The translations under genes were made by a program, and so were the position numbers. A model generated the notes under the pieces. That model did no database searches. It was not told where the DNA came from and worked only from the letters and a program-made list of their open reading frames with translations. Shown in pieces: positions 4,026 to 62,505 of a DNA stretch of 64,000 nt; position 1 is the first letter of the stretch, and each line of letters begins with the position of its first letter. The DNA is from an uncultured Pseudomonadota bacterium (GTDB lineage Bacteria; Pseudomonadota; Alphaproteobacteria; RF32; CAG-239), in contig CASFJS010000004.1 in the NCBI GenBank assembly GCA_949295085.1, positions 13,372 through 77,371 of the forward strand, given 5' to 3'.

Positions 4026-4634
4026 ATGGAGAATAAAGTGATGCAAAAACAAATTATAACAGTCATAAGCCTTTTGGTGCTGACAGCCTGTAGCAACCGG
4101 ACATCGACGGTGTTTGATTTTTTCAGCCGGAAAGATACGCCGGCGGATGTTGCTTATGTTGCCGATGAAGCAGGTGAAACAAATAGTCAAATTTCCGGTG
4201 CCGGCTACCATCTGGTAAAACGCGCGGATCGTTACGCCGCGGCAGATTATATCATCTTGCCGCAGGAATATGCCGTTGTGGCAACTCGGGCCGTCAATAA
4301 AATGCTGGCCGATGTTCCGGCAATTTTTGCGGCCGATAAAGATGCTCCGCTGTATATCGAAGACACGAATGTTATTGACCGTTATCTTCCGCAAGGTCGC
4401 GAAATGGCCGGAAAAACAGCCAAAGAAATTTTGATTAACTCGCAAATGTTTAATGTGACGGATGACAAAACATCTGCGGTCTATATTTTGAAAAGCAGTC
4501 TCAACAATACCAACACGCCGGAAGTTCCGGTTTTAATTTACAGACTGGAATTATATGACAAAGACGGCAATTTACAGGGCAGTTGGTGGGATACGCTGCG
4601 GCAGGTGCAAAATGATGATGGAAGCTGGTGGTAA
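4026..4634 (+). CDS. Putative lipoprotein
   Basis: 202 aa. Signal peptide with lipobox LTACS. Confidence 0.4.
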   Translation: MENKVMQKQIITVISLLVLTACSNRTSTVFDFFSRKDTPADVAYVADEAGETNSQISGAGYHLVKRADRYAAADYIILPQEYAVVATRAVNKMLADVPAIFAADKDAPLYIEDTNVIDRYLPQGREMAGKTAKEILINSQMFNVTDDKTSAVYILKSSLNNTNTPEVPVLIYRLELYDKDGNLQGSWWDTLRQVQNDDGSWW

Positions 4635-6387: not shown

Positions 6388-6828
6388 TTATCTCCTTTCC
6401 AGCATAAAGGTAACCGGCCCGTCATTCACCAGGCTGACCAGCATTTCCGCCTGAAAAACACCGCACCGGACATCAATCCCGTAGCCTCTCAGGCAGGATA
6501 CAAAATATTCATAAAGCGGTTTGGCGTCTTCGGGACGGGCCGCGGTTTCAAATCCCGGTCGATTGCCGCGCGAGGTGTCTCCGGCCAACGTAAATTGTGA
6601 TACCGCCAAAATTTGTCCGCCGACCTCCAAAACGGACAAATTCATTTTACCTTGAGCGTCTTCAAATATTCTCAAATGAGCAGTCTTTTTGGCCAGATAA
6701 TCGGCAACTTCCGTTGTATCACCGCGTTCAATGCCGATTAAAAGCAAAAATCCTTTATGGATAGCCGCGACTTCCGAGCCGTTGACGACAACATTGGCCT
6801 GCGTAACACGTTGAATAAGTACTTTCAT
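6388..6828 (-). CDS. dtd: D-aminoacyl-tRNA deacylase
   Basis: MKVLIQRV... start and SQFTLAGD motif, about 147 aa as in Dtd. Start placed at the second Met. Confidence 0.75.
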   Translation of the reverse strand: MKVLIQRVTQANVVVNGSEVAAIHKGFLLLIGIERGDTTEVADYLAKKTAHLRIFEDAQGKMNLSVLEVGGQILAVSQFTLAGDTSRGNRPGFETAARPEDAKPLYEYFVSCLRGYGIDVRCGVFQAEMLVSLVNDGPVTFMLERR

Positions 6829-6839
6829 TTTCGTTTCTT

Positions 6840-8063
6840 TCAATAAAATAAATATGCCAAAACAATTGCCGCGCCGATTCCGGCAAAATCAGACAACAAA
6901 GCCAACGGAAGAGCCGCACCGGTTTTGCTGATTTTAACCGCGCCGAAGTAAACCGCCAGCACATAAAAAGTTGTTTCGGTTGACCCCTGAATGATGGAGG
7001 CGGTAAACCCGGCAAAGCTGTCAACGCCATAGGTCGAAAAGGTGTCCAGCATCATGGCGCGAGCGCCGCTGCCGGATAGGGGTTTCATCAAGGCTGTCGG
7101 CAAAGCGGCAACAAAATCCGTGTTAATATGAAGCCTCTCAAAGCACCAGGCAATCCCGGAACAAATATAATCCAATCCGCCGGCGGTTCGAAAAACGCCG
7201 ATAGCAACCAGCATCGCCACAAGATAGGGAATAATCTGCATCGCAATTTTGAATCCGTCCCTGGCTCCCTCAATAAAAGTTTCATAAACATCAATTTTTT
7301 TAATCAGACCCGAAACAATAAATCCGAGCACCAAAGCAAACAAAATCAAATTGCTGATACAATAAGATACCCGTGTCCGGGCTGCCTCGTCCAGAGCGGC
7401 AAATCCGAAAGCCACAGCCGCAACAAACAAAATGCCGCCGCCGAGATAAGCCAACACCACCCGGTTGAAGATATTAATTCGTTGCCACAAAAGCGTTGCC
7501 AAAAAGCCGGTCAGGGTTGATACGGATGTTGCCAGCAAAATCGGAATAAAAACGGCCGCCGGATTTGTCGAGCCCATCTGGTAACGATACATCAAAATAG
7601 TAATGGGAATGAGTGTTACCGAAGACGAGTTGATAACCATAAACAGTATTTGTGCATCAGAGGCTTTGTCTTTGTGCGGGTTAACCTGTTGCAGTTGTTC
7701 CATGGCTTTGAGCCCCATCGGCGTTGCGGCGTTGTCCAGTCCCAAGACATTGGCGGCAATATTCATCATCATTGATCCAAAGGCCGGCGATTTTTTGGGA
7801 ATATCGGGCATAATACGATAAAACAGGGGGTAAAGCGCTTTTGCCAACAAACCGGTCAGTCCGGATCTTTCGGCGATTTTCATACATCCGAGCCAAAAGC
7901 ATAAAATGCCGGTTAAATTAAGAGCGATTTTAAAACCGTTGTTAGCACTGGCAAACAGACTGTTAACCAATTCCGGCCATATTTCCCAGTTGCCGGTTAT
8001 CGATTGCCAGACAGCCGTCAGCCCGGCCAAAATAAAAAATGCGGCCCAGATAATATTCAACAT
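6840..8063 (-). CDS. Nucleoside-recognition (Gate) domain membrane protein, SpmA/SpmB-like transporter
   Basis: 407-aa polytopic membrane protein with two Gate-domain halves. Confidence 0.45.
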   Translation of the reverse strand: MLNIIWAAFFILAGLTAVWQSITGNWEIWPELVNSLFASANNGFKIALNLTGILCFWLGCMKIAERSGLTGLLAKALYPLFYRIMPDIPKKSPAFGSMMMNIAANVLGLDNAATPMGLKAMEQLQQVNPHKDKASDAQILFMVINSSSVTLIPITILMYRYQMGSTNPAAVFIPILLATSVSTLTGFLATLLWQRINIFNRVVLAYLGGGILFVAAVAFGFAALDEAARTRVSYCISNLILFALVLGFIVSGLIKKIDVYETFIEGARDGFKIAMQIIPYLVAMLVAIGVFRTAGGLDYICSGIAWCFERLHINTDFVAALPTALMKPLSGSGARAMMLDTFSTYGVDSFAGFTASIIQGSTETTFYVLAVYFGAVKISKTGAALPLALLSDFAGIGAAIVLAYLFY

Positions 8064-27352: not shown

Positions 27353-27402
27353 CGTAAAAAAAGGCCCCTTTTTGAACTGTCCAACTTTCCGGGGACAGTT
27401 CA
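27353..27402. repeat. Left boundary repeat of the AT-rich island (hairpin GAACTGTCC-N-GGACAGTTC preceded by CGTAAAAA..GCCCCT)
   Basis: About 50 bp. Its reverse complement recurs at 33320-33370 with the hairpin stem conserved. Confidence 0.7.
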
Positions 27403-27495
27403 TAAGGCCGGGGAGCTTTTAGCGTATGCAATAGGAATCCTCGGATTCTAAAGGCTAAAAGAATCATTTTGCGAAATGTGATTTACGAACTCTCC

Positions 27496-27526
27496 GACCA
27501 CCTTAGTGCTTAGGTGGTCTTTTTTT
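27496..27526 (+). terminator. Rho-independent terminator
   Basis: GACCACCTTAGTGCTTAGGTGGTC hairpin followed by TTTTTTT. Confidence 0.6.
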
Positions 27527-27985
27527 ATGGAGATTTATTATTTATGGGGAAAATATGCGCTTTTTTTCGGACATAGAAATGTCTATGGCAATATTGACCA
27601 AGAATTGGAAAAGCAAGTAGAAAAGCTCATAATTCAGGAAAATATTGATACGTTTTGGATCGGCGGTTATGGTGAATTTGATAAATTAGCTTCTCGAACA
27701 GTTAGAAAAATGCAGGAAAAATATCCTGTAATACGGTTAATATTGATTATTGCTTATGCAGGGCAACTCCACCGCTTCGGAGATGAATTTCCTTTTGATG
27801 GTTTTGATTATCCTCCTGAAGCTGAAAATGCACCACAAAAATTTGCCATCTCGGCCAGAAATCATTATATGGCTGAAAATTGCGATATGGTTATCTCTCA
27901 TATTGTACATGATTATGGCGGGGCCTATGACGCCGTTAGAACTGCTAAAAGTAAAGGTAAAATTATAATAAATTTAGTTAAATAA
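27527..27985 (+). CDS. YpsA-like DUF1273 protein (SLOG superfamily, predicted nucleotide/ADP-ribose binding)
   Basis: Motifs correspond to B. subtilis YpsA (FGHRN ~ TGYKP; WIGGYGEFDKLA ~ ILISGQLGVELWA; EKYPVIRLILIIAY ~ EEYPDLKVAVITPF). AT-rich. Confidence 0.5.
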   Translation: MEIYYLWGKYALFFGHRNVYGNIDQELEKQVEKLIIQENIDTFWIGGYGEFDKLASRTVRKMQEKYPVIRLILIIAYAGQLHRFGDEFPFDGFDYPPEAENAPQKFAISARNHYMAENCDMVISHIVHDYGGAYDAVRTAKSKGKIIINLVK

Positions 27986-28169
27986 ATATAAAATCTCTCC
28001 AAATAAGAAACTTAAAAAATATATACATTGACTTGCTATAAAAAATCGGCTTAGACTTTAATATAAAATAAATCAATATGGAAATTTTGACATTATAGTT
28101 TATTTTAATATTAGCTAATGGAGTTTTGAACGAGAAGCAAGTAAAAACTATTATAATTAGGAGTTGTCG

Positions 28170-29162
28170 ATGATTTATCCAAATAAATTAAAGCCCGGAT
28201 CTCATATTCGAGTTATTGCGCCATCAAGAAGTTTCAAAATTATTTCAGAAGAAACACGCGAAATTGCGAAAAAACGTTTTGCAGATATGGGAATTTCGGT
28301 AAGTTATTCCAAACATTGTGATGAAATTGACGATTTTGTTTCATCATCAATTGCTTCAAGACTTGAAGATTTGCATGAAGCGTTTGCGGATAAAAGCGTT
28401 GACGGTATTTTAACAGCTATTGGCGGGTTTAATACTAATCAGTTAATTGATAAAATTGATTATACTCTTATTAAAAACAATCCTAAAATTTTATGTGGAT
28501 TTTCAGATATTACTTGCCTTTGCCATGCCATAACAGCAAAGACAGATGTTGTAACCTATTCTGGTCCGCATTTTTCAAGTTTTGGAATGCTTTATGGTTT
28601 TGATTATACATTGGACTATTTTAAAAAGTGTCTAATTGAGAGCAAGCCTTATCAGGTTGTCCCGGCCAAAGAGTTTAGCAATGATGAATGGTTTATGGAT
28701 CAAGAGAAACGTAATTTTACACCCAATAGTGGCTTTTGGATCATTAACAAAGGAAAAGGGAGTGAATTTGAGGGAAAATTAGTTGGCGGGCATGTTCGTT
28801 GTCTGAGTTCATTGCAAGGTACAGAATTTTGGCCGTCTTTGGAAAATACTATTTTGTTTTTAGAAGAAGATGAGGAAACAAACGCCGTTTTATTCGATCG
28901 TTTGTTGCAATCGTTAATTCATCAAGCAGATTTTAAACATGTTAAGGCGTTAATTATTGGCCGTTTCAAACCAGAATCAAAAATTGACAGAAATTTGCTT
29001 GAACAAATCATTCATACCAAAGAAGCCTTGAAAGAGTTACCTGTAATTGCCAATTTTGATATTGGACACTCGACTCCGATTATTACCTATCCAATCGGGG
29101 GACGGATTTCTCTTAAAATGCGGGAAGACGAGTTGCCAGCTATTGAAATACTGGAGCATTAA
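28170..29162 (+). CDS. Peptidase S66 LD-carboxypeptidase / microcin C immunity MccF family
   Basis: GGFN...CGFSDIT (nucleophile Ser) with His/Glu downstream. About 331 aa. RBS AGGAG at 28159. AT-rich. Confidence 0.7.
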   Translation: MIYPNKLKPGSHIRVIAPSRSFKIISEETREIAKKRFADMGISVSYSKHCDEIDDFVSSSIASRLEDLHEAFADKSVDGILTAIGGFNTNQLIDKIDYTLIKNNPKILCGFSDITCLCHAITAKTDVVTYSGPHFSSFGMLYGFDYTLDYFKKCLIESKPYQVVPAKEFSNDEWFMDQEKRNFTPNSGFWIINKGKGSEFEGKLVGGHVRCLSSLQGTEFWPSLENTILFLEEDEETNAVLFDRLLQSLIHQADFKHVKALIIGRFKPESKIDRNLLEQIIHTKEALKELPVIANFDIGHSTPIITYPIGGRISLKMREDELPAIEILEH

Positions 29163-29165
29163 AAA

Positions 29166-29196
29166 AATAGCGGGAAGTTTACTTCCCGCTATTTTT
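29166..29196. terminator. Bidirectional terminator between convergent genes
   Basis: Perfect palindrome AATAGCGGGAAGT-TTAC-TTCCCGCTATT flanked by A and T runs. Confidence 0.65.
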
Positions 29197-30307
29197 ATCT
29201 TGATAATTTATTTTGTGTTAATGTAAAGATTATTGAATTGGAAGAGTTCTCTCCTGTTTGCTTTTGCTGGTTTTCTATAACTTCTGTATTTGATTTTTGA
29301 TTTTGAGATGTTGGACATATAAAATCCATAATTTTTTGAGTATACTCTCCTTTATTAGATCCGTACTCTAATAATTCGTATTGATGTAGTGTCTTTCTTA
29401 ACACCTCTTTGGGAAGATTGGTTTTATCGGCACATGCTTTCATTATCTCAAGATATTTTTTCATTAGACGATTGGTGTTGCCCTTATTAGACGGTTCCAA
29501 TCCATCATTATATAAAGCCATGCTCGTTACAATCGTGTCTTCCATTTTTACTCGGATATTAGGATTTTGAATGTATTTATCTAATCCTAATACGGGGTGG
29601 CAATCCATAACATGATTTAATCCATAAATCTGTTTTAGTACCGTAGAGCTTCCTAAGGCAATCTCTATTCCGAGCTGCTTATCCTGATTTTCTAAAATAA
29701 TAACATTTCCAATATCTGAAAACGTATCTTTTCCATAATCACGCAAAGCGAGATTAAAATTGCGTCCCCAAACACCATCAATACCAAGTTTATGACGATA
29801 ATATTTAGGCTGCATAGTGTCTATTTCAAACATTTCAGATTTAAACATACTATGAGCCAAATCCATCAAATCAGTATCTCTGGCACTAATACGAATTTTT
29901 ATGTCATTAGGATCAATATTCCATTGTTCTTGGATAAAGCTGTAAGTCTGTTTTGTAATATCTTCCAGCCGTTCCGGTTTAGTCAGTATTCCAAGACTTG
30001 GAAAATACGATCCCCAATTCGGATAAAAATCATCATTTTCATAATTTTTTAAATTTCGAGTACGAATACAGGGCTGCGACATAACATAACCGCCAGCAGG
30101 AATACTGTCATTCAAAAAATAAGGCTTTAAAACACTGATGTGCGAACCAATAAAACGAACAGATGGATCTATTCCGGACGATATTTTAACAGGGTCATGT
30201 TTTATACAAGAACGGTCCTGAAAATAGGTTAGAAAACCGTCAATCATATTTTGCATATGAAAATGACTTTCTTTCCTGTTGAAATCTGGCATATCTTTTA
30301 TTTTCAT
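29195..30307 (-). CDS. Standalone alanyl-tRNA synthetase-like class II aaRS catalytic-domain paralog
   Basis: 370 aa. Alignable to the AlaRS N-terminal catalytic core: FLTYFQD...SSGIDPSVRF ~ FLDFFHSKGH...SSSLVPHNDPTLLF; SQPCIRTRN ~ SQRCVRAGG; GIEIALGSSTVLKQIYGLNHVMD ~ [23 protein letters not shown]. No tRNA-binding or editing domains. Confidence 0.45.
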   Translation of the reverse strand: MKIKDMPDFNRKESHFHMQNMIDGFLTYFQDRSCIKHDPVKISSGIDPSVRFIGSHISVLKPYFLNDSIPAGGYVMSQPCIRTRNLKNYENDDFYPNWGSYFPSLGILTKPERLEDITKQTYSFIQEQWNIDPNDIKIRISARDTDLMDLAHSMFKSEMFEIDTMQPKYYRHKLGIDGVWGRNFNLALRDYGKDTFSDIGNVIILENQDKQLGIEIALGSSTVLKQIYGLNHVMDCHPVLGLDKYIQNPNIRVKMEDTIVTSMALYNDGLEPSNKGNTNRLMKKYLEIMKACADKTNLPKEVLRKTLHQYELLEYGSNKGEYTQKIMDFICPTSQNQKSNTEVIENQQKQTGENSSNSIIFTLTQNKLSR

Positions 30308-30317
30308 TTTTTTTATC

Positions 30318-31130
30318 CTATTTTTTACCGTAACCCGACTTAAACTGGGCCATTATTAAGACGTTATTATGATCATGCTGTTTGAACAGTTTAGCCATTT
30401 GGACAATTCTTGTTCCGTACTTTTGACGTCCTTCTGCTGTCATGCCAATTTTCCAATTCCATTCCGGTGTTTTGCACTGTTCACTTAAAGCTTCACGCAG
30501 GAATTGAGATGGGATTCTTGGTGTTACCAGCCTTTCCGGGAAGAATAGCTGCGTATTATCTGAACTTTTTAGATAAAAATAAGATTCAACCGAAGTACGA
30601 GCAGAATCTTCATATATGACGTTATCTTTGATAAAATCTACTAAATTACGATTCCCGGAATATTGAGTTTCAAATTCTGAAATATTCCGTGATGATCCGT
30701 CATAATCAAGCAACTGAACATTCTTTTGTTTGAAAAAGTTATCCATATCATCTGTATCACATTTAACATTTGGAATAAAATGTAAATGTGCATGAAATAT
30801 TGATTTAATATGTGGCGGCGTATTTAATTCTTCCGCCTTACTTGTTCCATGCTCAAACATAATAAAATTTTCTGATTTTGTTGTATTCTCCAAACGATCC
30901 AATATATAACCTACTTCTCGTCCTTGAGCGTCATTAAATTCTGCAAATGTGTTAATATGTTCTTTAGGGAGAATAATAATATGATTGGGAGCAATCGGAA
31001 ATTTATCTGGAATAACCTTAAAGCTCTTAGTTTCAAATAAAGTTACATTACTCTGTAATTCTGGATATTGCTCTTTGATATTTTGAAATTCATCTTTCAA
31101 ACCATCACATAAAACGCAATTTTTTATCAT
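30318..31130 (-). CDS. HIT-family hydrolase (histidine triad; possible phosphoramidase)
   Basis: HAHLHFIP histidine-triad motif and N-terminal CVLCDG. The HIT domain is followed by a C-terminal extension of about 150 aa. Confidence 0.7.
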   Translation of the reverse strand: MIKNCVLCDGLKDEFQNIKEQYPELQSNVTLFETKSFKVIPDKFPIAPNHIIILPKEHINTFAEFNDAQGREVGYILDRLENTTKSENFIMFEHGTSKAEELNTPPHIKSIFHAHLHFIPNVKCDTDDMDNFFKQKNVQLLDYDGSSRNISEFETQYSGNRNLVDFIKDNVIYEDSARTSVESYFYLKSSDNTQLFFPERLVTPRIPSQFLREALSEQCKTPEWNWKIGMTAEGRQKYGTRIVQMAKLFKQHDHNNVLIMAQFKSGYGKK

Positions 31131-31732
31131 AAACTCGCCCCTCCAATGGCGTTTTTTGAGAATTTCATATAATAACCATTTTGTTTTTTACGAACATGAT
31201 TAGCATGTTTTATAATTTGGAAAGCTGCCTCTGTTGCTGACAACTTAGTTACATCTAAGCGTAAAAGATTTGGATGTTCTATCTCTGGCAACCCCAAGTT
31301 CGCAATTTGCTGAACTACATCCGGATTTATTGTTTTTAAAAACTTTTTCCGAAAAGGGTTGGCGATTCTTTTCTTGTTCTCTTTTACATCACACAGTAAC
31401 ATTACAGGAACGAATAAAGCCTGCCGTGTATTGGCAAGCTTTTCAACTGGTTTATAATATGAATTTTCTTCCCCTAGGGAAATTACATTTGTAAATATAA
31501 AAGATTCACCTTTAGGACAAATTTCTCCCATGGCTTCAAGAACAATATTACGCACCTTTAGTCGATATTCTTCATGTTTGGGATGGGAATAATTTTTTGA
31601 TACTGAAAAAATCGCATTTGTATACGAATGATTGTCAACTAAAGTGAATGATTGTTTTTTCTGGATTTCCTTTGCAATGGTTTGCTTTCCCACGCCTGGA
31701 CCTCCGATTAAATAAATGATTGTATTCCTCAT
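31127..31732 (-). CDS. P-loop nucleotide/nucleoside kinase-like protein
   Basis: Walker A motif LIGGPGVGKQTIAKEI, about 200 aa, adenylate-kinase / shikimate-kinase-like size. ATGA overlap with the HIT gene. Confidence 0.55.
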   Translation of the reverse strand: MRNTIIYLIGGPGVGKQTIAKEIQKKQSFTLVDNHSYTNAIFSVSKNYSHPKHEEYRLKVRNIVLEAMGEICPKGESFIFTNVISLGEENSYYKPVEKLANTRQALFVPVMLLCDVKENKKRIANPFRKKFLKTINPDVVQQIANLGLPEIEHPNLLRLDVTKLSATEAAFQIIKHANHVRKKQNGYYMKFSKNAIGGASL

Positions 31733-31805
31733 TTTAACCTTTATGCAAAATTAACATTGCGGCAATCAATTGACTTAATTTTGACAAAATATTTAGGGAA
31801 ACAAC

Positions 31806-31859
31806 ATGATCTTCATCAAAATTATTTCCTTTAATTGTCTTGTTTTCTGCGCCTTTTGA
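31806..31859 (+). other. Candidate 17-aa small ORF (MIFIKIISFNCLVFCAF), possible RiPP precursor/leader
   Basis: ATG preceded by AGGGAA. Two Cys. Lies 130 bp upstream of the radical SAM gene on the same strand. Highly speculative. Confidence 0.15.
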
Positions 31860-31871
31860 TTATTATCGGTT

Positions 31872-31888
31872 GTTAATATATCATTAAC
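31872..31888. promoter_or_regulatory. Palindrome GTTAAT-ATATC-ATTAAC in the divergent promoter region of the island
   Basis: Inverted repeat. A third GTTAAT copy lies at 31949-31954. Adjacent are TTGACA/TTGACT -35-like hexamers (31911-31927). Confidence 0.3.
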
Positions 31889-31991
31889 CATTATCGTGGT
31901 CAATATTTTTTTGACAAAATGTTGACTTTTCCCGATAAGAATGTTAGTGTTAATTGTTTTCCATTAAAAATTACCAGTTCAAGGATAAAAA

Positions 31992-33248
31992 ATGCAAGCA
32001 ACAAACTTATTCAGTCGCACAGTTCCATGTAAAAAAGAGCTAATTAAAGAAGATACCTCTGCTTATTTGGGAACGGAAACATATTCTATTATGAAAAATA
32101 GCTTATTACGCATATCCCCCAATGGAACTCTTGCAATTTCAGGAAAAACAATAAATAGTGTTTTATTCTTAGACAATGAAATGGTTGAGCTTCTTCAACA
32201 ACCGACTTTCACGTTGAATGGAATGCCGCAGTCCGTCGTTCAGAATTTATTAAGCCATGAACTAATAGAACAAACCGACAGGCCTAATTCTTTTAAAAAA
32301 GTCCATTGTCTAAATAACGCCTTGCCATATTATGGCAGAATTGAAATTACCGACGCTTGCCAATGTGATTGTGATATTTGTTATAAAGCGGGAATTCCTA
32401 CTCCTCCACCATCTCTGGATATTCTGAAAAAACGAATCAAGCATTTAAGAAAGCTGGGAATTACCAGACTTGAAATTTTAGGCGGCGAACCATTGCTCAG
32501 AAAAGATTTGCCTGAACTCTGTGATTTTGTAACTAAAGAAAACTTTTTATACACGATTGTAACTAACGGTGAGTATTTATCCTCGTTGGATAAAAGAGCC
32601 ATTAACTCATTAAAAAGCGCAAGTGATGTAATTATAAGTATTGACTCATACGGAGAATTACACGACAAAAGCAGAAAACGTCCGGGACTTTTTGCTAAAG
32701 ATATAGAGGGGATTCAGGTATTAAAAGAAAATGGTATCAACTGCTCTTTGTTATGTACTGTTAATCAGGATAATGAACCTGGCATTGACCAATTAGTCGA
32801 ATACCTAAAACCCTTTGAAGTTAATTTATTTATCCGGCCGACAATAATTGCCGGAGCTGCTGCTAACAACGAATTGCAAAATGTTGATATGCGCCGCATT
32901 TACGAAAAACACAAAAATAATCCGTACGTTTTTCATAATACCGTTCATTTAGCTGACAAAATTCCAGAATCAAAATATTATGGTTGCGATATTCGACAAC
33001 TGATTAATATTGATGTAAATGGCCGTCTACTAATTTGTCATATGGATCGTAAGCATAAAAAGGGGCCTATTGAGAAATATACTCCGGAAATGTTATTACA
33101 AGAATTGGATTTTACCCTGCGCTCACGCTTAAAAAAACAGGAAACCTGTAAGGATTGTGATGTTAACAGTTCATCAGAAGGAATTAAATGTGGGGGATTT
33201 TGCCAATTTTCAAATACTTTTATCAAAAATAAAATAAAAGAACGCTAA
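31992..33248 (+). CDS. Radical SAM / SPASM-domain protein with N-terminal RRE-like extension (peptide-modifying maturase-like)
   Basis: CQCDCDIC fits CxxxCxxC. Glycine-rich SAM motif (LEILGGEPLL). C-terminal Cys cluster CKDCDV...CGGFC (SPASM/twitch-like). About 120 aa of non-rSAM N-terminal domain. Confidence 0.7.
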   Translation: MQATNLFSRTVPCKKELIKEDTSAYLGTETYSIMKNSLLRISPNGTLAISGKTINSVLFLDNEMVELLQQPTFTLNGMPQSVVQNLLSHELIEQTDRPNSFKKVHCLNNALPYYGRIEITDACQCDCDICYKAGIPTPPPSLDILKKRIKHLRKLGITRLEILGGEPLLRKDLPELCDFVTKENFLYTIVTNGEYLSSLDKRAINSLKSASDVIISIDSYGELHDKSRKRPGLFAKDIEGIQVLKENGINCSLLCTVNQDNEPGIDQLVEYLKPFEVNLFIRPTIIAGAAANNELQNVDMRRIYEKHKNNPYVFHNTVHLADKIPESKYYGCDIRQLINIDVNGRLLICHMDRKHKKGPIEKYTPEMLLQELDFTLRSRLKKQETCKDCDVNSSSEGIKCGGFCQFSNTFIKNKIKER

Positions 33249-33319
33249 TTATGAATGGAAAATTTTATGATGAGCTATTTATAGGTCATTTAATATCTAT
33301 CAAAAAAAGCCTCTTAATT

Positions 33320-33370
33320 TTGAACTGTCCCCGGAAAGTTGGACAGTTCACTTCGGAGGGGCTTTTTACG
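33320..33370. repeat. Right boundary repeat of the AT-rich island (inverted copy of 27353-27402)
   Basis: TTGAACTGTCCCCGGAAAGTTGGACAGTTCA...GGGGCTTTTTACG is the reverse complement of the left copy. It doubles as a bidirectional terminator. Confidence 0.7.
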
Positions 33371-37377: not shown

Positions 37378-37476
37378 ACCAAATATTGGCCACTCAAAAA
37401 ACTCGTCATCGCCGTGCATGCCCCTGGTAATGTCACGCCGCCTCGTTGTAGGAAAAAGCCTGAGGAACAGCTTTTG

Positions 37477-41316: not shown

Positions 41317-41889
41317 TCAGAGTTTTGTTTCCGATATGTTTTGCTTCAAAAGACTGACTGCTGCGCGCGCATGGGGGGGGGTAGAACTTTTGTCAGAAAT
41401 TTCAATAACCTTAAAAGATTTTTTTGTTGTTTTAGGTCTGGTTTCAATCAAAACTTCCGTCGTTTCCGCAGGCTCTTTTTCCGTTTTTGTCGTTGATCTT
41501 CTGTTGCGTTGTGTCGGTTTAGTCTCTACCAAAGTGTTTGAGGTCTCGTTGCTGTCGGATACCTGAGACTGCGGTGCTTCGGCAGGCGTCTCCGGTTGTT
41601 CGGCAGAAACCTCGGAGGTTTCACCGTCTTTGTTGGCAAAACGGGCATTTTTACGCTCGTTTATTTCCGTAATAATTTTACGGTAATGTTCGGCATATTG
41701 GCGAAACACCTCGGCCTCGACATAATTGCCGTTGCTATGGGCTTCCTTGGCCAGTTCATTATAGCGTTTGATCAGATCCAGCGCCGTTCCGCTGCATTTA
41801 CCGGCCGGGGATATACTGTCAAATTTGTAATTAATGGAATAAACCTGATTGTTATAATTATTATTGTTGCGATATTTAATTTTTTTCAT
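41317..41889 (-). CDS. DUF4167 domain protein
   Basis: Conserved N-terminal YKFDSISPAGK...AEVFRQYAEHY signature of alphaproteobacterial DUF4167. Low-complexity C-terminus containing the C9 tract. Confidence 0.55.
   Translation of the reverse strand: MKKIKYRNNNNYNNQVYSINYKFDSISPAGKCSGTALDLIKRYNELAKEAHSNGNYVEAEVFRQYAEHYRKIITEINERKNARFANKDGETSEVSAEQPETPAEAPQSQVSDSNETSNTLVETKPTQRNRRSTTKTEKEPAETTEVLIETRPKTTKKSFKVIEISDKSSTPPHARAAVSLLKQNISETKL
41373..41381. repeat. Homopolymeric G9 (C9 on the coding strand) tract inside the 3' part of the DUF4167 gene
   Basis: atgggggggggtag, preceded by (GC)4. Confidence 0.85.
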
Positions 41890-51879: not shown

Positions 51880-51968
51880 GATCAGACACTTTTTTGTTTA
51901 CTTTTGTAACAAACCATGTATAAAATGATCCGAATTCATGCTTGATATATGTCGGAGACCTCTTTGAG

Positions 51969-53003
51969 ATGAACGGAAAAGCACCTTTGGTATCGGTTAT
52001 CATACCGGTTTACAACACGGCCAAATACTTGCCGCAATGTCTGGACAGTATTGTTAATCAGACACTCAGGGATATTGAAATTATCTGTGTTGATGACGGC
52101 TCGACCGACAATTCGCTTGAGATCTTGCAACAATATGCCGGACAAGACAAACGTTTTACGCTTTTGCAGCAGCCAAACCGGTTTGCCGGAGTGGCGCGTA
52201 ACGCCGGTATGGATATTGCCAGAGGCGCATATTTGTCATTTTTGGACAGTGATGATTTTTTTGCGCCGGATATGCTGGAAAAATTATATCATGCGGCCAA
52301 AGCCGAACAAGCCGATATGGTGGTATGTGACTTTAAGGAATATAAAGAAAGCCGCTGGCCTTTTTTGCCTCCGCGTGTCTGTGTTATGAACAGCTCTCAA
52401 TCTCAGACATATAATAATGAGGAGGGGCTCCTCCCCCCCCCCTACGAATTTCTTAATCCCTCTACCGAAAACAAACTGTTTGACCGCAACTTTATCGTAA
52501 AAAATCACATTCGCTTTCAAGACATTAAATCTTGCAACGATCTGGGGTTTACTTTCTGCGCGGCATCCGTCGCCGGCAAAATAGCCTTTGTTCGAGAGGC
52601 CCTGGTCAATTACCGGTGCAAACGCCCCGCAAACATCAGCCATAGCCGAGGGCGCAAAGATATTAACATTATCAAAGCCTATCTTTACGTGAAAGATTTT
52701 TTGTCCTGCAATCGTAAAGAAAACATGATTGGATATTTAAAAAACAAGCTATATGGCAACATTGCTTTGGAAATATCCAAATACGATGCTCCGGACAGAG
52801 ATACTTTGGCTAAAAAAGGCCGTGCCCTCTTGGGGGAAGATTATCCGTTTTTTGCCAAATGTTTTCATTATGACAAAAAAGATTATCGCTTTCTCGGTCT
52901 GCCGCTTTTTGAGCGTATCCAAACAGCATCCAAAACAACTTATGTGATTTTCGGTTGCCTTAAAATTAAACGAAAAATCAAAACAAAGGAAAAACAGTCA
53001 TGA
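51969..53003 (+). CDS. Family 2 glycosyltransferase (contains C10 tract)
   Basis: GT2 N-terminal domain VSVIIPVYNTAKYL...DIEIICVDDGSTD...DSDD. Paralog of 59876-60787. Confidence 0.75.
   Translation: MNGKAPLVSVIIPVYNTAKYLPQCLDSIVNQTLRDIEIICVDDGSTDNSLEILQQYAGQDKRFTLLQQPNRFAGVARNAGMDIARGAYLSFLDSDDFFAPDMLEKLYHAAKAEQADMVVCDFKEYKESRWPFLPPRVCVMNSSQSQTYNNEEGLLPPPYEFLNPSTENKLFDRNFIVKNHIRFQDIKSCNDLGFTFCAASVAGKIAFVREALVNYRCKRPANISHSRGRKDINIIKAYLYVKDFLSCNRKENMIGYLKNKLYGNIALEISKYDAPDRDTLAKKGRALLGEDYPFFAKCFHYDKKDYRFLGLPLFERIQTASKTTYVIFGCLKIKRKIKTKEKQS
52433..52442. repeat. Homopolymeric C10 tract within the GT2 coding sequence (currently in frame, encoding LLPPPY)
   Basis: ctcctccccccccccctac, counted directly. 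Confidence 0.9.
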
Positions 53004-53734
53004 TTTTTTCAAAGATAAAGAAAGAAAACAAACGAAGCATATATTTTTTGGGAATTAAACTTTTTTCGTATACAAAAAAGACAAATCAGACAATAAAAGA
53101 CGAGTTACGGTACTTTCGGGATTGGCAGACGGACTTTTATAAAGACAGACCCGAAAAATTTCCGGTTGTTTTAACGGAAGCCGAAAAAGAAACACTTATT
53201 CAATACCTGCGGCAGTCAAAAAACTATCTTGAATTTGGCGCCGGCGGGTCAAGTTTTTTGGCGCTGTTGAACTCTGATACGACCGTTTATTCCGTTGAGT
53301 CCGATAAAGATTGGGTCGACTACTTGCGCTCCTGGACTTTTATGCGTAACAAAGAAACCGAAGGAAAAATTAATTTTTTTGTCGCAGATATCGGCCAAAC
53401 AAAAGCATGGGGTTATCCGGCGGATGAAAGCCGAAAAAATTCATATCCGGACTATTCTTCAAACATATTCGCCCGGATAACCGATACGGATATTGACACG
53501 GTTTTTGTTGACGGTCGGTTTCGCGTTGCTTGTGTTGTGGCCTCGGCCATACATTACCCTGACGCCGTTATTTTGGTACATGATTACACAAAACGCCGGC
53601 ATTATCATATTGTTGAATCATTATTTGATGTGACGGATATAACGGATACCCTCGTCGCCCTGAAACTAAAAAAAGCACAGGAAACAAAAGCCCTGCAAAA
53701 TTTGTACGACGAATATAAATACAATCCAGACTGA
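53000..53734 (+). CDS. Hypothetical protein, possibly TylF-like class I SAM-dependent methyltransferase fold
   Basis: LEFGAGGSSF glycine-rich motif and DTVFVDGR. N-terminal shared motif SIYFLGIKLF. ATGA-coupled to the GT2 gene. Confidence 0.3.
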   Translation: MIFSKIKKENKRSIYFLGIKLFSYTKKTNQTIKDELRYFRDWQTDFYKDRPEKFPVVLTEAEKETLIQYLRQSKNYLEFGAGGSSFLALLNSDTTVYSVESDKDWVDYLRSWTFMRNKETEGKINFFVADIGQTKAWGYPADESRKNSYPDYSSNIFARITDTDIDTVFVDGRFRVACVVASAIHYPDAVILVHDYTKRRHYHIVESLFDVTDITDTLVALKLKKAQETKALQNLYDEYKYNPD

Positions 53735-54100
53735 TCAAAATTCCTCTTTAATACCGAGCATCATATTTTCACGGTATTCGGCACCCCAGGCCACCATCGA
53801 ATCAATTACCGGCTTAAGGGCATAACCGACCGATGTCAGCGTATATTCGACCCGCGGCGGGATTTGGGCATAAACCTTGCGGATAACCAAACCTTTTTCT
53901 TCCAGCATCCGCAGATTTGATGTCAAAACCTTTTGCGTAATGTCACCCAGCGATTTTTTGAGTTCGCCGAAACGCTTGGTTCCGTCCATCAGTGTTTGGA
54001 TAATTTGCATTTTCCAACGATCGCCGATTAGTTTAACCGTCATTTCCGCCAGGTATTTTTGCACATCGTCTATCATCAAAAAATCTCCCGCAAGCCGCAA
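53735..54100 (-). CDS. HxlR-family transcriptional regulator
   Basis: 121 aa. Winged helix with GELKKSLGDITQKVLTSNLRMLEEKGLV signature. Confidence 0.75.
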   Translation of the reverse strand: MRLAGDFLMIDDVQKYLAEMTVKLIGDRWKMQIIQTLMDGTKRFGELKKSLGDITQKVLTSNLRMLEEKGLVIRKVYAQIPPRVEYTLTSVGYALKPVIDSMVAWGAEYRENMMLGIKEEF

Positions 54101-58281: not shown

Positions 58282-59226
58282 CTATTTTCCCTCAAAAATT
58301 TCATCAGTTGAAACACAGATACACTGCTTACCGGACAAACGGGCTATTTCTTGAGCCTGTAAAGGATCAGATTCAATAAAGCATACAGTATCTTTCATCT
58401 TTTTATAGATTGATGCCTTATAGGCAGCATGACATTGAAGGTGTCGTCGTTCTTCAGCCGAATTTACATTAAGCATAAACAAATTTTTGTATTTGACATT
58501 ATGCGCGGCCAGCCAATTTTCCGTTTGCGGGCGATATTTTTCCAAACGTGAAGTTACGATAGAATGAATTTCATACCGCGGAATAAATAAGGGTTTTGCC
58601 GAAGATAAAAATTTTAGATACTCAAAGCCGTCGTCATTTTGTTCTGCCATAGGATCAACACATAAAACACCATCAAAATCAAAACAGCATTTTGCTGCAA
58701 TAGCATGGTTCAGATAATTCCATTGAAACAAACGCGGATGTTCGACCGTTTCTAAAGCATAATCGACCAGCTTTGATGATTCATCGGTCGTATAAACGGC
58801 CGCAAACATAAACTCTTTTTCATTCGGAGAAAATTTGTTTGCCAGCATCTCCTTTGTTTTGTGCATTGCTTTTCCGGAGGCAACGGAATCATCAACGACT
58901 AAAATTTTTTTATATTTACCATCGGTGTCTAATACTCTTTGCCCGTTAGACGGTAAAATATCATTGAGCAGTTCCGGTAGCGAACAAACCGGCTTATTCA
59001 AAAACAAGCCGATTATATAGGCAGGGATCATACCTGAACGAGGCACGCCGACAATCAAATCAATATTTGCCGGAAGTTTGTATATGTTTTGTCTTATGGT
59101 TGAAGCCAGAGATTGAAAGGTTTTAAAATGTATTTTGGCTTTTCCTCTTGATTTCAGGGAAATTTTAATCCCCAAAAAATATAAGATCTTTTTGCCGTTA
59201 TGCTTTTTAATACCGAAAAGTTTCAT
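58282..59226 (-). CDS. Phosphoribosyltransferase-domain / HAD-like hydrolase fusion protein
   Basis: PRTase motif ILVVDDSVASGKAM. HAD motif I FDFDGVL in the C-terminal half. N-terminal shared motif KILYFLGIKISLK. Confidence 0.45.
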   Translation of the reverse strand: MKLFGIKKHNGKKILYFLGIKISLKSRGKAKIHFKTFQSLASTIRQNIYKLPANIDLIVGVPRSGMIPAYIIGLFLNKPVCSLPELLNDILPSNGQRVLDTDGKYKKILVVDDSVASGKAMHKTKEMLANKFSPNEKEFMFAAVYTTDESSKLVDYALETVEHPRLFQWNYLNHAIAAKCCFDFDGVLCVDPMAEQNDDGFEYLKFLSSAKPLFIPRYEIHSIVTSRLEKYRPQTENWLAAHNVKYKNLFMLNVNSAEERRHLQCHAAYKASIYKKMKDTVCFIESDPLQAQEIARLSGKQCICVSTDEIFEGK

Positions 59227-59235
59227 TTTTTTTCC

Positions 59236-59874
59236 TCATTTTACTGCTCTTAATCCAAGATTTATCCACCCGTGGTCATACCCGCGGCATTCGGAAGATT
59301 TCATACGCCCAATATTTGTAAAACCGCTTTCTTTTAAGCATTCTGTTAAATATCTTTCGGAAAAGGCGGCCTGATGAGAATTCCAATGCCCTTTGATTCT
59401 ATTGCCGTCACCATAGGTAAAAATTCTTCCACAAAACCATTTACAAACATCGTGCTCATCATTAAATTTCCACCAACCGTCATTATAAAAGTCCTTGCCT
59501 TGATATAATTCTCCATCGACAAAGGCTTTGGCTATTTTTAATCCATCAGGCACCCACAACTCCAACACGCCGTCTTTTTTCAAAATTCTGTATATCTCTT
59601 TAAGTACAAATTTGGTTTTATACCATTCAATGTGTTCCAGAAAATGGCTACTGTAAATCAAATCAAAACTGTTGTCTGCCAATGGTATGCCGTTAGCGGC
59701 ATCGGCAATATAATCCGTTGCCTTATTTTTGACTATGTTTAGCCCCTCAAAGCCCGGAATTCTTTTCTTTCCGGGACCGATTTCCAAATAGCGGACACTT
59801 TTGCGCCTGTTGGCCAGCCGTATGAAAGGCTCAACTCCAAATTTGTATAAAATTGTTTTTAGAAATATTGTCAT
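59236..59874 (-). CDS. Class I SAM-dependent methyltransferase
   Basis: LEIGPG... motif I and DLIYSSHFLEH post-I/II motifs. 212 aa. Confidence 0.6.
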   Translation of the reverse strand: MTIFLKTILYKFGVEPFIRLANRRKSVRYLEIGPGKKRIPGFEGLNIVKNKATDYIADAANGIPLADNSFDLIYSSHFLEHIEWYKTKFVLKEIYRILKKDGVLELWVPDGLKIAKAFVDGELYQGKDFYNDGWWKFNDEHDVCKWFCGRIFTYGDGNRIKGHWNSHQAAFSERYLTECLKESGFTNIGRMKSSECRGYDHGWINLGLRAVK

Positions 59875-59875
59875 A

Positions 59876-60787
59876 TCACTTCCTTTCTTTTAATTTGCTA
59901 AAGCATGAAATTATTTGCTTTATTTTGAATTTGTAATATTTTTGGCGCAGCCGGAAATTGTGGTTGAATAAAGTTTGATATTGCCGGTATAAATCTTTTG
60001 AGTTCATCTCATTTTTGCCGATGAAGCGTTCTATTAAAAAATTTTGTAAATATTTATATTCAAAATCTGCAAGACCTGAGGATTTGGCACATTCCAATGA
60101 TTTTTTCAAAGCAGTTATTTTATCGTGCTGTCGTTTACTCAATTTGTCCTTATGATTGGTGGAAGACGATGCGTTACTACACCAATAAAAATAGCCGCTG
60201 TAATCAATAAAACAGTAAAGAGGTTTTAAACAAACCGTTTTGACGTTAAATAAAATATCCTGATAAAATATGCCGTCATAAAATAACATATCGTTTTGTT
60301 GCAAAAATTCTGTCCGCCATATTTTATTCCAAACATAACACTTCTTCATATTATCAAGAATACGGCAAAAATCGCTACTGACGAGAGGCTTTTCCCTGAT
60401 ATCCTTTTCTGTTGCGGTATCGCTGCATTTATAATAACCGCACTGAACAACATCTGCCCTATAAAGTTCCGCCGCCAGATACAACTGTTTATAAAAGTCA
60501 TTTTTGATATGGTCATCGGCATCGACAAAACCAATATATCTTCCGGCTGCTCTGGCAATACCAGTATTGCGCGCCAAAGACGAACCACCGTTCTTTTGAA
60601 TAATAACCTTGATTCGCTCATCCCGAATCGCATACTCGTTAAGAATCGCGGCACTGCCGTCGGTTGAACCGTCATCAACACAGATAATCTCAATATCTTT
60701 GAGGGTTTGATTAACAATACTGTCCAAACACCGCGGCAGATATTTTTCACTGTTGTAAATCGGAACAATAACACTAATTTTAGGCAT
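59876..60787 (-). CDS. Family 2 glycosyltransferase (paralog of 51969-53003)
   Basis: [42 protein letters not shown]...DADD, about 60% identical to the other GT2 over the N-terminal domain. Confidence 0.75.
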   Translation of the reverse strand: [303 protein letters not shown]

Positions 60788-60800
60788 ATCTTATTCCTTT

Positions 60801-61718
60801 TTATTTTCGTCTGAATTTAAATTCCCAACCCAGCAAACCGACAACCTTAAATTTTTGTCCGGCGATTTCGCGGTTGTGAATATTGAAAAAAGCATGAAAA
60901 AAGTTTTTAATCTTTTGGCTCTGTTGGTATCGGAGGCAAATGTCTTTGATATCTTTTTCAAAAGCCGTCAGCGGAACATACTTCCAAAACGCCTCACCAC
61001 CTAAGATATCAGGATTGTTCCAAGGTTTGTTGTTTCCACCGCCACAATAATGCAGAATACAAGCATTGGAATACTCAGGTATTTTTTTGGGAATAACACA
61101 ATAACAATTATCAAGCTGCTGATAACAATCTTGAAATATCCTATTCAATATATCCATATCCGGCAGCCGCAAAGCATTTTGTCCAGACAACAAAGCCGCG
61201 GTTAGTTTGATTTGTTGAGAAATATTTTGTAGATTCCACAGGCAGTTATTAATGAGTAAAAGTCCTGAATTAAAGTTTTTTGCAGGAATTAAACGCTCAT
61301 TATAGCAAGGAACCGCGCCGATTATTTTATCGCCTAAATCTTCATTATAAAGTTTTTTAATATCATCAACAAACGCGACATCAACATCCGAATAAATCGC
61401 CTTTTCGCAGTCCGGCAGAATATCCGGAATTAAAAACCTTGAATACATATCGCGGCTGATATGCTTAAGCCGCGGCAGGTCACCGAATTCTTTGTCGCAG
61501 TCCACCGGAATAAAGCGCACGCTGAAGTTGTCAAAATACTGCCGGGTGTCGCAGATTTTTTGCCGGTTCTTTTCGCTGATGCCGGAATCCAGCACATAAA
61601 AATCAACGTACTCTTGCGTGTTGGCAAGGATACTGGCCATTGTGGTGGCAACAAAGGGGGCAAACTTGTCATTGCTGGCCAAAAATACCGGAATATGAGA
61701 CTTATTTGGTGTATTCAT
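60801..61718 (-). CDS. Family 8 glycosyltransferase (LPS/LOS alpha-glycosyltransferase, RfaJ/LgtC-like)
   Basis: GT8 motifs (NDKFAPFVATTMASIL..., YSDVDVAFVDD, HYCGG...KPW). Confidence 0.7.
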   Translation of the reverse strand: MNTPNKSHIPVFLASNDKFAPFVATTMASILANTQEYVDFYVLDSGISEKNRQKICDTRQYFDNFSVRFIPVDCDKEFGDLPRLKHISRDMYSRFLIPDILPDCEKAIYSDVDVAFVDDIKKLYNEDLGDKIIGAVPCYNERLIPAKNFNSGLLLINNCLWNLQNISQQIKLTAALLSGQNALRLPDMDILNRIFQDCYQQLDNCYCVIPKKIPEYSNACILHYCGGGNNKPWNNPDILGGEAFWKYVPLTAFEKDIKDICLRYQQSQKIKNFFHAFFNIHNREIAGQKFKVVGLLGWEFKFRRK

Positions 61719-62505
61719 CTTTAAAAATTCCTTTCAATCCGACCGGATTAACCGAAATGATTTCGACATCGGGATAAAATTTTCCGGCAAATTTTTTAAA
61801 TTGCTTATAAGCGGCAATCACCTTTTTGACGGCCAAAGAGTTTTTTTCTTTTGCGTTATAAACATAACCGCCGGTGGTGCAGTCGCAGCCGACCAGATAA
61901 ATTCTTCGCGGATAGGTCCACAAAGCAAATTGCAACGCCGAAAAGGTGGTGCTGCCGAAATCACCGAGCGGGCAGCAGGATATATCATAGGCAAACTGCG
62001 GCTTAAACCCCAACATCCAGTCAGTCCGATAACGCAACGCGCCGGCTTTGATGGCGCAGGATTCGGGAACCGTCCACGGTTTTTCATAAACATTTTCGCG
62101 AATAAGACCATAAAACTTGGTGCATTTTTTCGGCTCATACGCGGCCACGTCGTCAATATATTCCGGCGTTTTGCCCGTATAATCCTGAATAAAAATATAA
62201 TCCAATTTGACCGGCGCCACGGCAAAACTGCGGTTGACGCCGATATGCACGGCGCCTTTGACGGGTTTGTAGTCTTTGGCGGTCGGGCCGGAAGCAAAAA
62301 TAACAATATCCTGCCCGATGTGCTTTTCCTTAAACGGTAAAAAAGTTTTTTGGTGCAGGGCAAAAGTGCTCAGGTTGTTTTGCGTCATCCGGTTCAAAAT
62401 ACGGGTAATGTTGCCGCCGTCCGGATTTTTGAGCTTAAATTTCAATCCCAGGAAATAAACGATTTTGTGGGTGTCAAGCCGCTGAATACCGAATAGTCTG
62501 CTCAT
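61702..62505 (-). CDS. Hypothetical glycan-cluster protein (possible MptE/DUF115-like transferase fold)
   Basis: Rossmann-like IVIFASGPTAKDY...LVGCD. N-terminal shared motif KIVYFLGLKFKLK. First gene of the minus-strand operon. Confidence 0.3.
   Translation of the reverse strand: MSRLFGIQRLDTHKIVYFLGLKFKLKNPDGGNITRILNRMTQNNLSTFALHQKTFLPFKEKHIGQDIVIFASGPTAKDYKPVKGAVHIGVNRSFAVAPVKLDYIFIQDYTGKTPEYIDDVAAYEPKKCTKFYGLIRENVYEKPWTVPESCAIKAGALRYRTDWMLGFKPQFAYDISCCPLGDFGSTTFSALQFALWTYPRRIYLVGCDCTTGGYVYNAKEKNSLAVKKVIAAYKQFKKFAGKFYPDVEIISVNPVGLKGIFKDEYTK

Follow-up and report, generated by a model that had tools for sequence, protein, structure and literature searches.

We analyzed a stretch of 64,000 nucleotides (the window, positions 1–64000) from an uncultured alphaproteobacterium. 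The slot between comEC and hxlR in this DNA is occupied by two overlapping genes, the first of which encodes a glycosyltransferase of family GT2 and contains a run of ten C. The features of this locus are as follows.

51897–51926, plus strand: weak sigma-70-like promoter match (TTTACT-18-TAAAAT, 9/12) in the 89 nt that separate comEC from the GT2 gene
51969–53003, plus strand: GT2 family glycosyltransferase gene, 344 aa, with a PF00535 match; carries the tract
52433–52442, plus strand: poly-C tract, C10, in frame (ON), encoding part of L-PPP (residues 156–158)
52454–52456, plus strand: TAA stop that would end translation in the +1 state (C11), predicted product 162 aa
52498–52500, plus strand: TAA stop reached in the −1 state (C9), product 176 aa, identical to the public protein P0123
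53000–53734, plus strand: methyltransferase-like gene, 244 aa, whose ATG overlaps the GT2 stop (ATGA); homologous to PDB entry 3cvo

The poly-C tract

The ten C are uninterrupted and lie 45% of the way along the GT2 gene. In the frame of the ORF, the codons across the run are CTC CTC CCC CCC CCC TAC, which translate as LLPPPY, and public gene calls on related contigs give the same ORF of 344 aa. A first-pass annotation of this DNA had described the tract as lying inside a GT2 gene and being in frame (ON), and both the sequence and the ORF agree with that description. It had also called such a tract unexpected by chance in a genome of about 50% GC. The expectation is borne out, with 0.02 (independent-base model) or 0.04 (first-order Markov model) runs of at least ten C expected in 64 kb; the base composition needs correction, as the window has 45.8% GC.

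Runs of at least six C or G are scarce in the window: two for C (one C6 and the C10) and two for G (one G6 and one G9), against about ten each expected under the first-order Markov model, which is a roughly fivefold depletion overall. Because G/C runs are otherwise depleted, the C10 and the G9 (41373–41381) are clear outliers. Runs of seven or eight G or C are absent from the window, and these two tracts stand alone. Only five G/C runs of at least eight occur in roughly 1 Mb of GT2-homolog loci from other genomes, nearly all of which are gut or rumen MAGs. An uninterrupted G/C tract of about eight or more in an ORF or promoter is a hallmark of simple-sequence-repeat contingency loci, and the C10 tract, which is real, in frame and far beyond chance, has this property.

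Some local elements were considered and discarded. A hairpin of GAGGAG with CTCCTC, or of the G run with the C run, is no more stable than in shuffled sequences (z = 0.24) and was dropped as a stimulator of slippage. Terminator-like hits on the minus strand at 52419–52443 are merely the G run pairing with CCCCTCCTC. An internal promoter-like site at 52387–52415 with an SD-like motif is not followed by a start codon, and the region contains eight such sites against 6.3 expected, so that we attribute it to chance. The match at 51897–51926 upstream of the gene is likewise a consensus match only, such sites being no commoner in the region than in shuffled sequence.

The GT2 enzyme and the place of the tract in the protein

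Membership of family GT2 is supported by the Pfam profile PF00535 (Glycos_transf_2), which matches residues 9–137 with an E-value of 3.8e-41 and 141 bits, far above the curated cut-off of 23.3. The best NCBIfam model is NF007482 (WaaH/YibD-type LPS core glycosyltransferase), for which the score of 139 bits lies below the cut-off of 423; the enzyme is thus related to this family without being a member of it, and no role in LPS core synthesis can be transferred.

The AlphaFold model, built on 12 sequences, is GT-A-like with a pTM of 0.77. Its N-terminal 120 residues mostly have pLDDT values above 90, which makes the nucleotide-binding half confident. The closest solved folds are 5hea, TarP, TarS and RmlT (Foldseek E-values of 5e-20 to 1e-15, query-normalised TM-scores of 0.5–0.6), at 19–31% sequence identity. 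In an alignment of 11 homologs (ten at 39–56% identity and the 99% identical variant P0001), the DXD motif Asp93-Ser94-Asp95-Asp96 is invariant, as is the motif Cys189-Asn190-Asp191. Alignment, model and top PDB matches therefore agree on the DXD motif and the GT-A fold that characterize GT2 enzymes. By analogy with the catalytic Asp of TarP/RmlT-type enzymes, the Cys-Asn-Asp motif (189–191) presumably holds the catalytic base.

The three prolines encoded by the tract are an insertion of three residues relative to all ten distant homologs, in a poorly conserved stretch; P0001 has them too. Residues 151–158 form a loop with pLDDT below 50, in which, judging from the model, a tract of this kind can be accommodated. 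Nine nucleotides have thus been inserted, specifically in this lineage, into a tolerant loop that separates the donor-binding half of the enzyme from its conserved second half.

When the GT2 protein was scanned against GTDB species representatives, the best identity among the matches listed was 47%. The closest homolog outside the species is P0002 (56% identity), encoded at 2397–3407 of contig L094. It was rejected as a positional ortholog, since it has a different context (it adjoins a resolvase-like gene) and is a mosaic, being nearly identical to the other GT2 of the window (59876–60787) over its first ∼65 residues and resembling the GT2 with the poly-C tract in the remainder. The gene preceding P0002 is a small resolvase/HTH_7-like gene, and the same holds for the first GT2 of contig L099. 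The mosaic suggests recombination among the GT2 genes of such cassettes.

Consequences of a change in tract length

We translated the gene in silico with 6 to 14 C in the tract. C7, C10 and C13 give the full-length protein. With C9, the 158 native residues are followed by 18 missense residues (176 aa) and with C12 the product has 177 aa, translation ending at the TAA at 52498–52500. With C11, only four missense residues follow the 158 native ones (162 aa), and C8, C11 and C14 all end at the TAA at 52454–52456, with products of 161–163 aa. A frameshift in either direction removes everything after Pro158, the Cys-Asn-Asp motif included. The earlier estimate was that a change of one base truncates the enzyme after about 160 aa, which these figures refine. 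A change of a single repeat unit toggles between a full-length and a truncated product, as in known contingency loci. An exact look-up in the public protein collection of the C7, C8, C11, C12 and C13 products, in two haplotype backgrounds, returned none of them.

Genomic context

Upstream of the GT2 gene lie an lpxA-like acyltransferase gene (Hexapep and Acetyltransf_11 domains), lpxI, lpxB and comEC. The 244-aa protein encoded immediately downstream matches PDB entry 3cvo ("methyltransferase-like protein of unknown function") with an E-value of 8.4e-25 and has no Pfam or NCBIfam match at threshold; judging from the ATGA overlap, its gene is probably translationally coupled to the GT2 gene. 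On its 3′ side follow hxlR (opposite strand), a GT4 glycosyltransferase gene, thrS and a deaminase gene. The GT2 and methyltransferase-like genes have a GC content of 40–43%, compared with 49–52% in the flanking core genes.

We compared this slot (51880–53735 of the window) with positions 1312–8100 of contigs L099 and L102, whose ThrRS is 99% identical. Both contigs have a different glycan cassette of six genes between comEC and hxlR:

HTH_7 protein, GT2-hexapeptide fusion, 428-aa protein, nucleotidyltransferase, GT2, SHMT

This six-gene cassette contains no G/C tract. An A9 run at 4047–4055 of L099 and L102, inside the gene for the 428-aa protein, is a possible further slippage site. The gene with the poly-C tract is thus part of a strain-variable locus, probably for a surface glycan and probably exchanged horizontally, of a kind that usually harbors contingency genes. 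A surface glycan is the likely product of the pathway, given the GT2 family of the enzyme and the neighboring lpxI, lpxB, GT4, GT8 and GT2 genes. The first-pass annotation had spoken of the first gene of an LPS/LOS glycosyltransferase block. The position in a block is a fair description; LPS/LOS is plausible only, from the lipid A neighbors and the GT8 gene, and the product could equally be a capsule or exopolysaccharide.

A second glycan cluster of low GC content (36–45%) lies at 58282–62505 on the minus strand and encodes a phosphoribosyltransferase-like protein, a methyltransferase, a GT2, a GT8 and a 267-aa protein. It too varies: strain B (L004) has a Methyltransf_21 gene and another GT2 gene, and L099 and L102 have yet another set. 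Elsewhere in the window, a 6-kb segment of 34% GC (27366–33362) is replaced by 18 nt in strain C (L092) and looks like a strain-specific island. It encodes an LD-carboxypeptidase, a 370-aa protein with a weak AlaRS-like match, a 201-aa ORF, a HIT-domain protein and a radical SAM protein, and there is no tRNA at its edges. Rfam and tRNA scans of the whole window found nothing, neither rRNA nor tRNA.

Homologs of the GT2 enzyme, among the matches listed in the scan of GTDB representatives, come nearly all from MAGs recovered from the human or animal gut or rumen. ThrRS has many relatives at 90–99% identity, of which those with a name are all labelled "MAG: Alphaproteobacteria bacterium", and the presence of LpxI and DUF4167 is in keeping with Alphaproteobacteria. 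A literature search for the accessions of the sequencing runs turned up no relevant paper. The host bacterium is probably gut-associated. In a MAG labelled Bacteroidaceae (L027), another GT2 gene (6689–8017) is accompanied by two poly-C runs. One, a C9 at 6593–6601, comes after a TTGACA hexamer (some 90 nt ahead of the start) and a single A, and could form the spacer of a promoter; the other, a C12 at 7874–7885 near the 3′ end of the gene, encodes APPPPKPP. Poly-C runs near GT2 genes may be recurrent in such MAGs.

Natural C10 and C9 alleles

The earlier annotation had proposed a comparison of strains, which we carried out on public assemblies. The protein cluster of the GT2 enzyme at 90% identity has five members. 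One of these, P0123 (176 aa), ends in ...LLPPPTNFLIPLPKTNCLTATLS and is exactly the C9 frameshift product; it is encoded on L001–L003. Fetching the contigs that encode the cluster gave 11 related sequences (L001–L011) with 98.7–100% DNA identity to the window. The tract has nine C in L001, L002 and L003 and ten in L004–L011 and the window. It is uninterrupted in all 11 contigs, and its flanks are identical.

Two MEGAHIT contigs, L002 and L006, were rejected as extra strains, since their variants alternate between two haplotypes and thus mark them as mosaics of co-assembly or mixture. The haplotypes of the species that carry the gene are the following.

Haplotype A: window = ERR10610563 (0 differences in 9.5 kb), C10
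Haplotype B: ERZ16268163 / ERR10610549, C10
Haplotype C: ERZ16268236 / ERR10610621, C9
Haplotype D: ERZ16268270, ERZ16268267, ERR10610655, C10
Haplotype E: SRR29999897, from a different project, C10

Tract length therefore differs within the species, with C10 in four of the five haplotypes and C9 in one. Uniform length, or interruption of the tract in relatives, had been named beforehand as outcomes that would speak against a switch, and neither is seen among these five. In a block of 7007 bp common to 11 sequences (the window and L001–L010, without L011), no indel other than the one at the tract is present. The C9 haplotype C (L001) differs from the nearest C10 haplotype, D (L008), at 11 other positions in these 7007 bp. 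Apart from the tract, the C9 allele carries neither an indel nor a stop, and the gene after it is likewise undamaged. In the C9 strain (L001, 6001–7034; also L002 and L003), the GT2 gene is annotated automatically as two proteins, P0123 (176 aa) and P0122 (104 aa).

Length polymorphism among close strains with conserved flanks, a further mark of contingency loci, is thus present as a single independent event: among the five haplotypes, there is only one independent change in tract length. That the tract is uninterrupted in all five is uninformative on selection, since at a divergence below 1% this is the chance expectation. JGI metagenome contigs scanned for the flanks of the tract with a variable gap gave 0 hits.

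Other repeats and the second G/C tract

Over 24.2 kb, haplotype C differs from the window by 217 substitutions and seven indels. Two of the indels are at the long G/C tracts, one is in a T7 run (34150), one is in an A6 run (41972) and three are at 37402–37462. According to the ORF coordinates, the five indels outside the G/C tracts lie between genes, and the only indels within ORFs are those at the two G/C tracts. Both long G/C tracts have changed in haplotype C, compared with one of the 15 A/T runs of at least seven. The substitution rate on the block compared between haplotypes C and D is 0.0016 per site, and set against this rate the single length change suggests, crudely, a rate of change in the tract several hundred times that of an average site.

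The second of the two tracts is situated in a gene on the opposite strand:

41373–41381: G9 on the plus strand, C9 on the coding (minus) strand, inside the DUF4167 gene (Pfam) at 41317–41889

This tract sits 17 codons before the DUF4167 stop. In haplotype C it has ten bases, which gives a 196-aa protein with an altered tail (P0130), and in strain D it is interrupted by a synonymous change (CCCCTCCCC). The tract varies though it touches only the C-terminal tail, so length changes in the long G/C runs of this genome do not depend on the run being a switch, and the behavior of the DUF4167 tract means that instability alone is no proof of a switch. That a frameshift at the C-terminus can be nearly neutral is made as a general point in PMC3315296.

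Alternative explanations

The interpretation that competes most seriously with a switch, though we regard it as unlikely, takes the tract for a mere site of high mutability in a gene that is dispensable and was acquired horizontally, and the C9 allele for ordinary pseudogenisation on the way to gene loss. The GT2 gene is indeed accessory, being replaced by a different cassette in other strains, and has a low GC content. Only one length change has been found, and C9 could be a one-way loss. The DUF4167 tract moreover varies with an effect on only the last 17 residues and is interrupted in strain D, and it looks neutral. On the other hand, the gene is intact and in frame, with the full C10, in four of the five haplotypes, which come from two sequencing projects, and the C9 allele carries no second lesion in the gene or in its downstream neighbor. 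An in-frame C10 insertion in a loop also implies repeated, tolerated steps of slippage. Even if the gene were decaying, the tract would still toggle its expression; this explanation differs from a switch in evolutionary meaning and not in mechanism.

Two other readings concern the alleles themselves. It is very improbable that out-of-frame alleles still yield some enzyme by programmed recoding, that is, by transcriptional slippage or −1 ribosomal frameshifting on C CCC CCC with the SD-like GAGGAGGGG 5 nt upstream, which would make expression graded and not on/off. Internal SD-like elements stimulate frameshifting in dnaX and prfB, the arrangement GAGGAGGGG-CTCCT-C10 is present here, and the C run fits the slippery pattern X XXY YYZ. 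The window allele needs no recoding, however; the codons GAG GAG GGG simply encode Glu-Glu-Gly in frame, and the adjacent hairpin has the stability of shuffled sequence, as noted above. Slightly less credible still is that the true length is uniform and the difference between C9 and C10 is a sequencing or assembly artefact at a homopolymer. Long G/C homopolymers are error-prone on short-read platforms, and both long G/C tracts differ in one and the same sample. A systematic error should nevertheless hit all samples equally, and 14 of the 15 A/T runs of at least seven are unchanged in the C9 sample, with no other indel within an ORF over 24 kb. Nine C are read in two assemblies of ERR10610621 made with different software, the ENA scaffold (L001) and the Logan contig (L003), and the mosaic MEGAHIT contig L002 reads C9 too, while assemblies of at least four other samples have C10. 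Since the assemblies of the C9 sample agree with one another and those of the other samples agree on C10, an artefact of assembly is unlikely.

A probable slipped-strand switch in a putative surface-glycan gene

We consider it likely that the C10 tract is a slipped-strand (simple-sequence-repeat) contingency switch in the GT2 gene of this uncultured alphaproteobacterium and that it toggles a step in the synthesis of a surface glycan. Phase variation, as first suggested for this gene, is supported by the natural C9 and C10 alleles, by the truncation predicted for C9 and by the many glycan and lipid A genes around the GT2 gene.

According to this mechanism, cells with ten C in the tract (or 7 or 13) would make the full 344-aa enzyme. 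Gain or loss of one C at replication, through slipped-strand mispairing, would shift the frame after Pro158 and lead to a stop 18 codons (C9) or four codons (C11) further on. The truncated protein would retain the nucleotide-sugar-binding half with the DSDD motif (93–96) and would be without the second half and its residues Cys189, Asn190 and Asp191. OFF cells would thus be without one sugar addition on their surface glycan, and they would probably contain less of the overlapping methyltransferase-like protein because translational coupling would be lost. Later slippage could restore the frame. The population would then be a heritable and reversible mix of glycan types, from which phage, antibody or other host pressure could select.

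Comparison with known systems

Homopolymeric-tract contingency loci of this kind are described in PMC3025981, PMC5084427 and PMC3068675. The loci of Campylobacter jejuni (LOS, capsule and flagellin-glycan) and the lgt genes of Neisseria meningitidis likewise have an uninterrupted G/C run of about 8–13 in the ORF of a surface-glycan transferase, slippage by one base likewise leads to a premature stop, and ON and OFF alleles occur among nearly identical strains. The present case differs in its host, an uncultured and probably gut-associated alphaproteobacterium, whereas C. jejuni and N. meningitidis are epsilon- and betaproteobacterial pathogens. It also differs in the mid-gene position of the tract, which in those species is near the 5′ end, and only two long G/C tracts were seen in the 64 kb.

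In Helicobacter pylori, poly-C tracts in the fucosyltransferase genes futA, futB and futC control the Lewis-antigen decoration of LPS, and futC reportedly combines its tract with a translational frameshift cassette. H. pylori is a gut-associated bacterium, as ours probably is, and in both the poly-C tract is inside a glycosyltransferase gene, but the fut enzymes belong to GT10/GT11 and have no sequence relationship to the GT2 enzyme described here. Other tracts act on different genes and with different bases. Slippage in the poly-A tracts of Vibrio cholerae O1 wbeL and manA leads to intra-strain heterogeneity in the O antigen, a target of phage or immunity (PMC3441752), and slippage in a poly-G switch of a Bifidobacterium breve pilus leads to heterogeneity in a gut colonisation factor (PMC9187656). 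Both cases were established by experiment or deep sequencing, whereas ours comes from a comparison of assemblies.

The structural relatives, which are inverting GT-A (GT2) transferases of the TarP, TarS and RmlT type and the Streptococcus parasanguinis enzyme CgT (5hea), have in common with our model a helical C-terminal part and an N-terminal domain that binds the nucleotide sugar and bears a DXD motif. Since the acceptors of these enzymes (teichoic acid, serine-rich adhesin) are those of Gram-positive bacteria, they give no indication of the substrate here. To our knowledge, none of these enzymes is phase-variable.

Implications

The mechanism is textbook and will therefore not surprise a specialist; the locus adds an unexceptional though well-supported case of the on/off switching by slippage with which many host-associated bacteria vary their surface sugars. 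Good descriptions of contingency loci come from a small number of cultured pathogens and seldom from uncultured commensals; for gut Alphaproteobacteria, our literature searches turned up no account of homopolymer switches. A more speculative idea, to which we give little credence, is that this widespread lineage diversifies its surface glycans on two levels, by swaps of whole cassettes (in the comEC–hxlR slot and in the cluster downstream of thrS) and by slippage within a cassette gene, and that −1 recoding aided by GAGGAGGGG might make OFF alleles leaky, as reported for H. pylori futC.

For the annotation of MAGs, the C9 allele is a warning, since gene calling breaks it into two pieces (176 and 104 aa), so that what is probably a switch in its OFF state would be recorded as a damaged gene. 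Because natural ON and OFF alleles are present in public metagenomes, the state of the switch can be scored from reads without culture and related to host, time point or phage load. If the two-level scheme sketched above is true, this would be the first contingency-locus system described in commensal Alphaproteobacteria, and it would be trackable in existing metagenomic time series.
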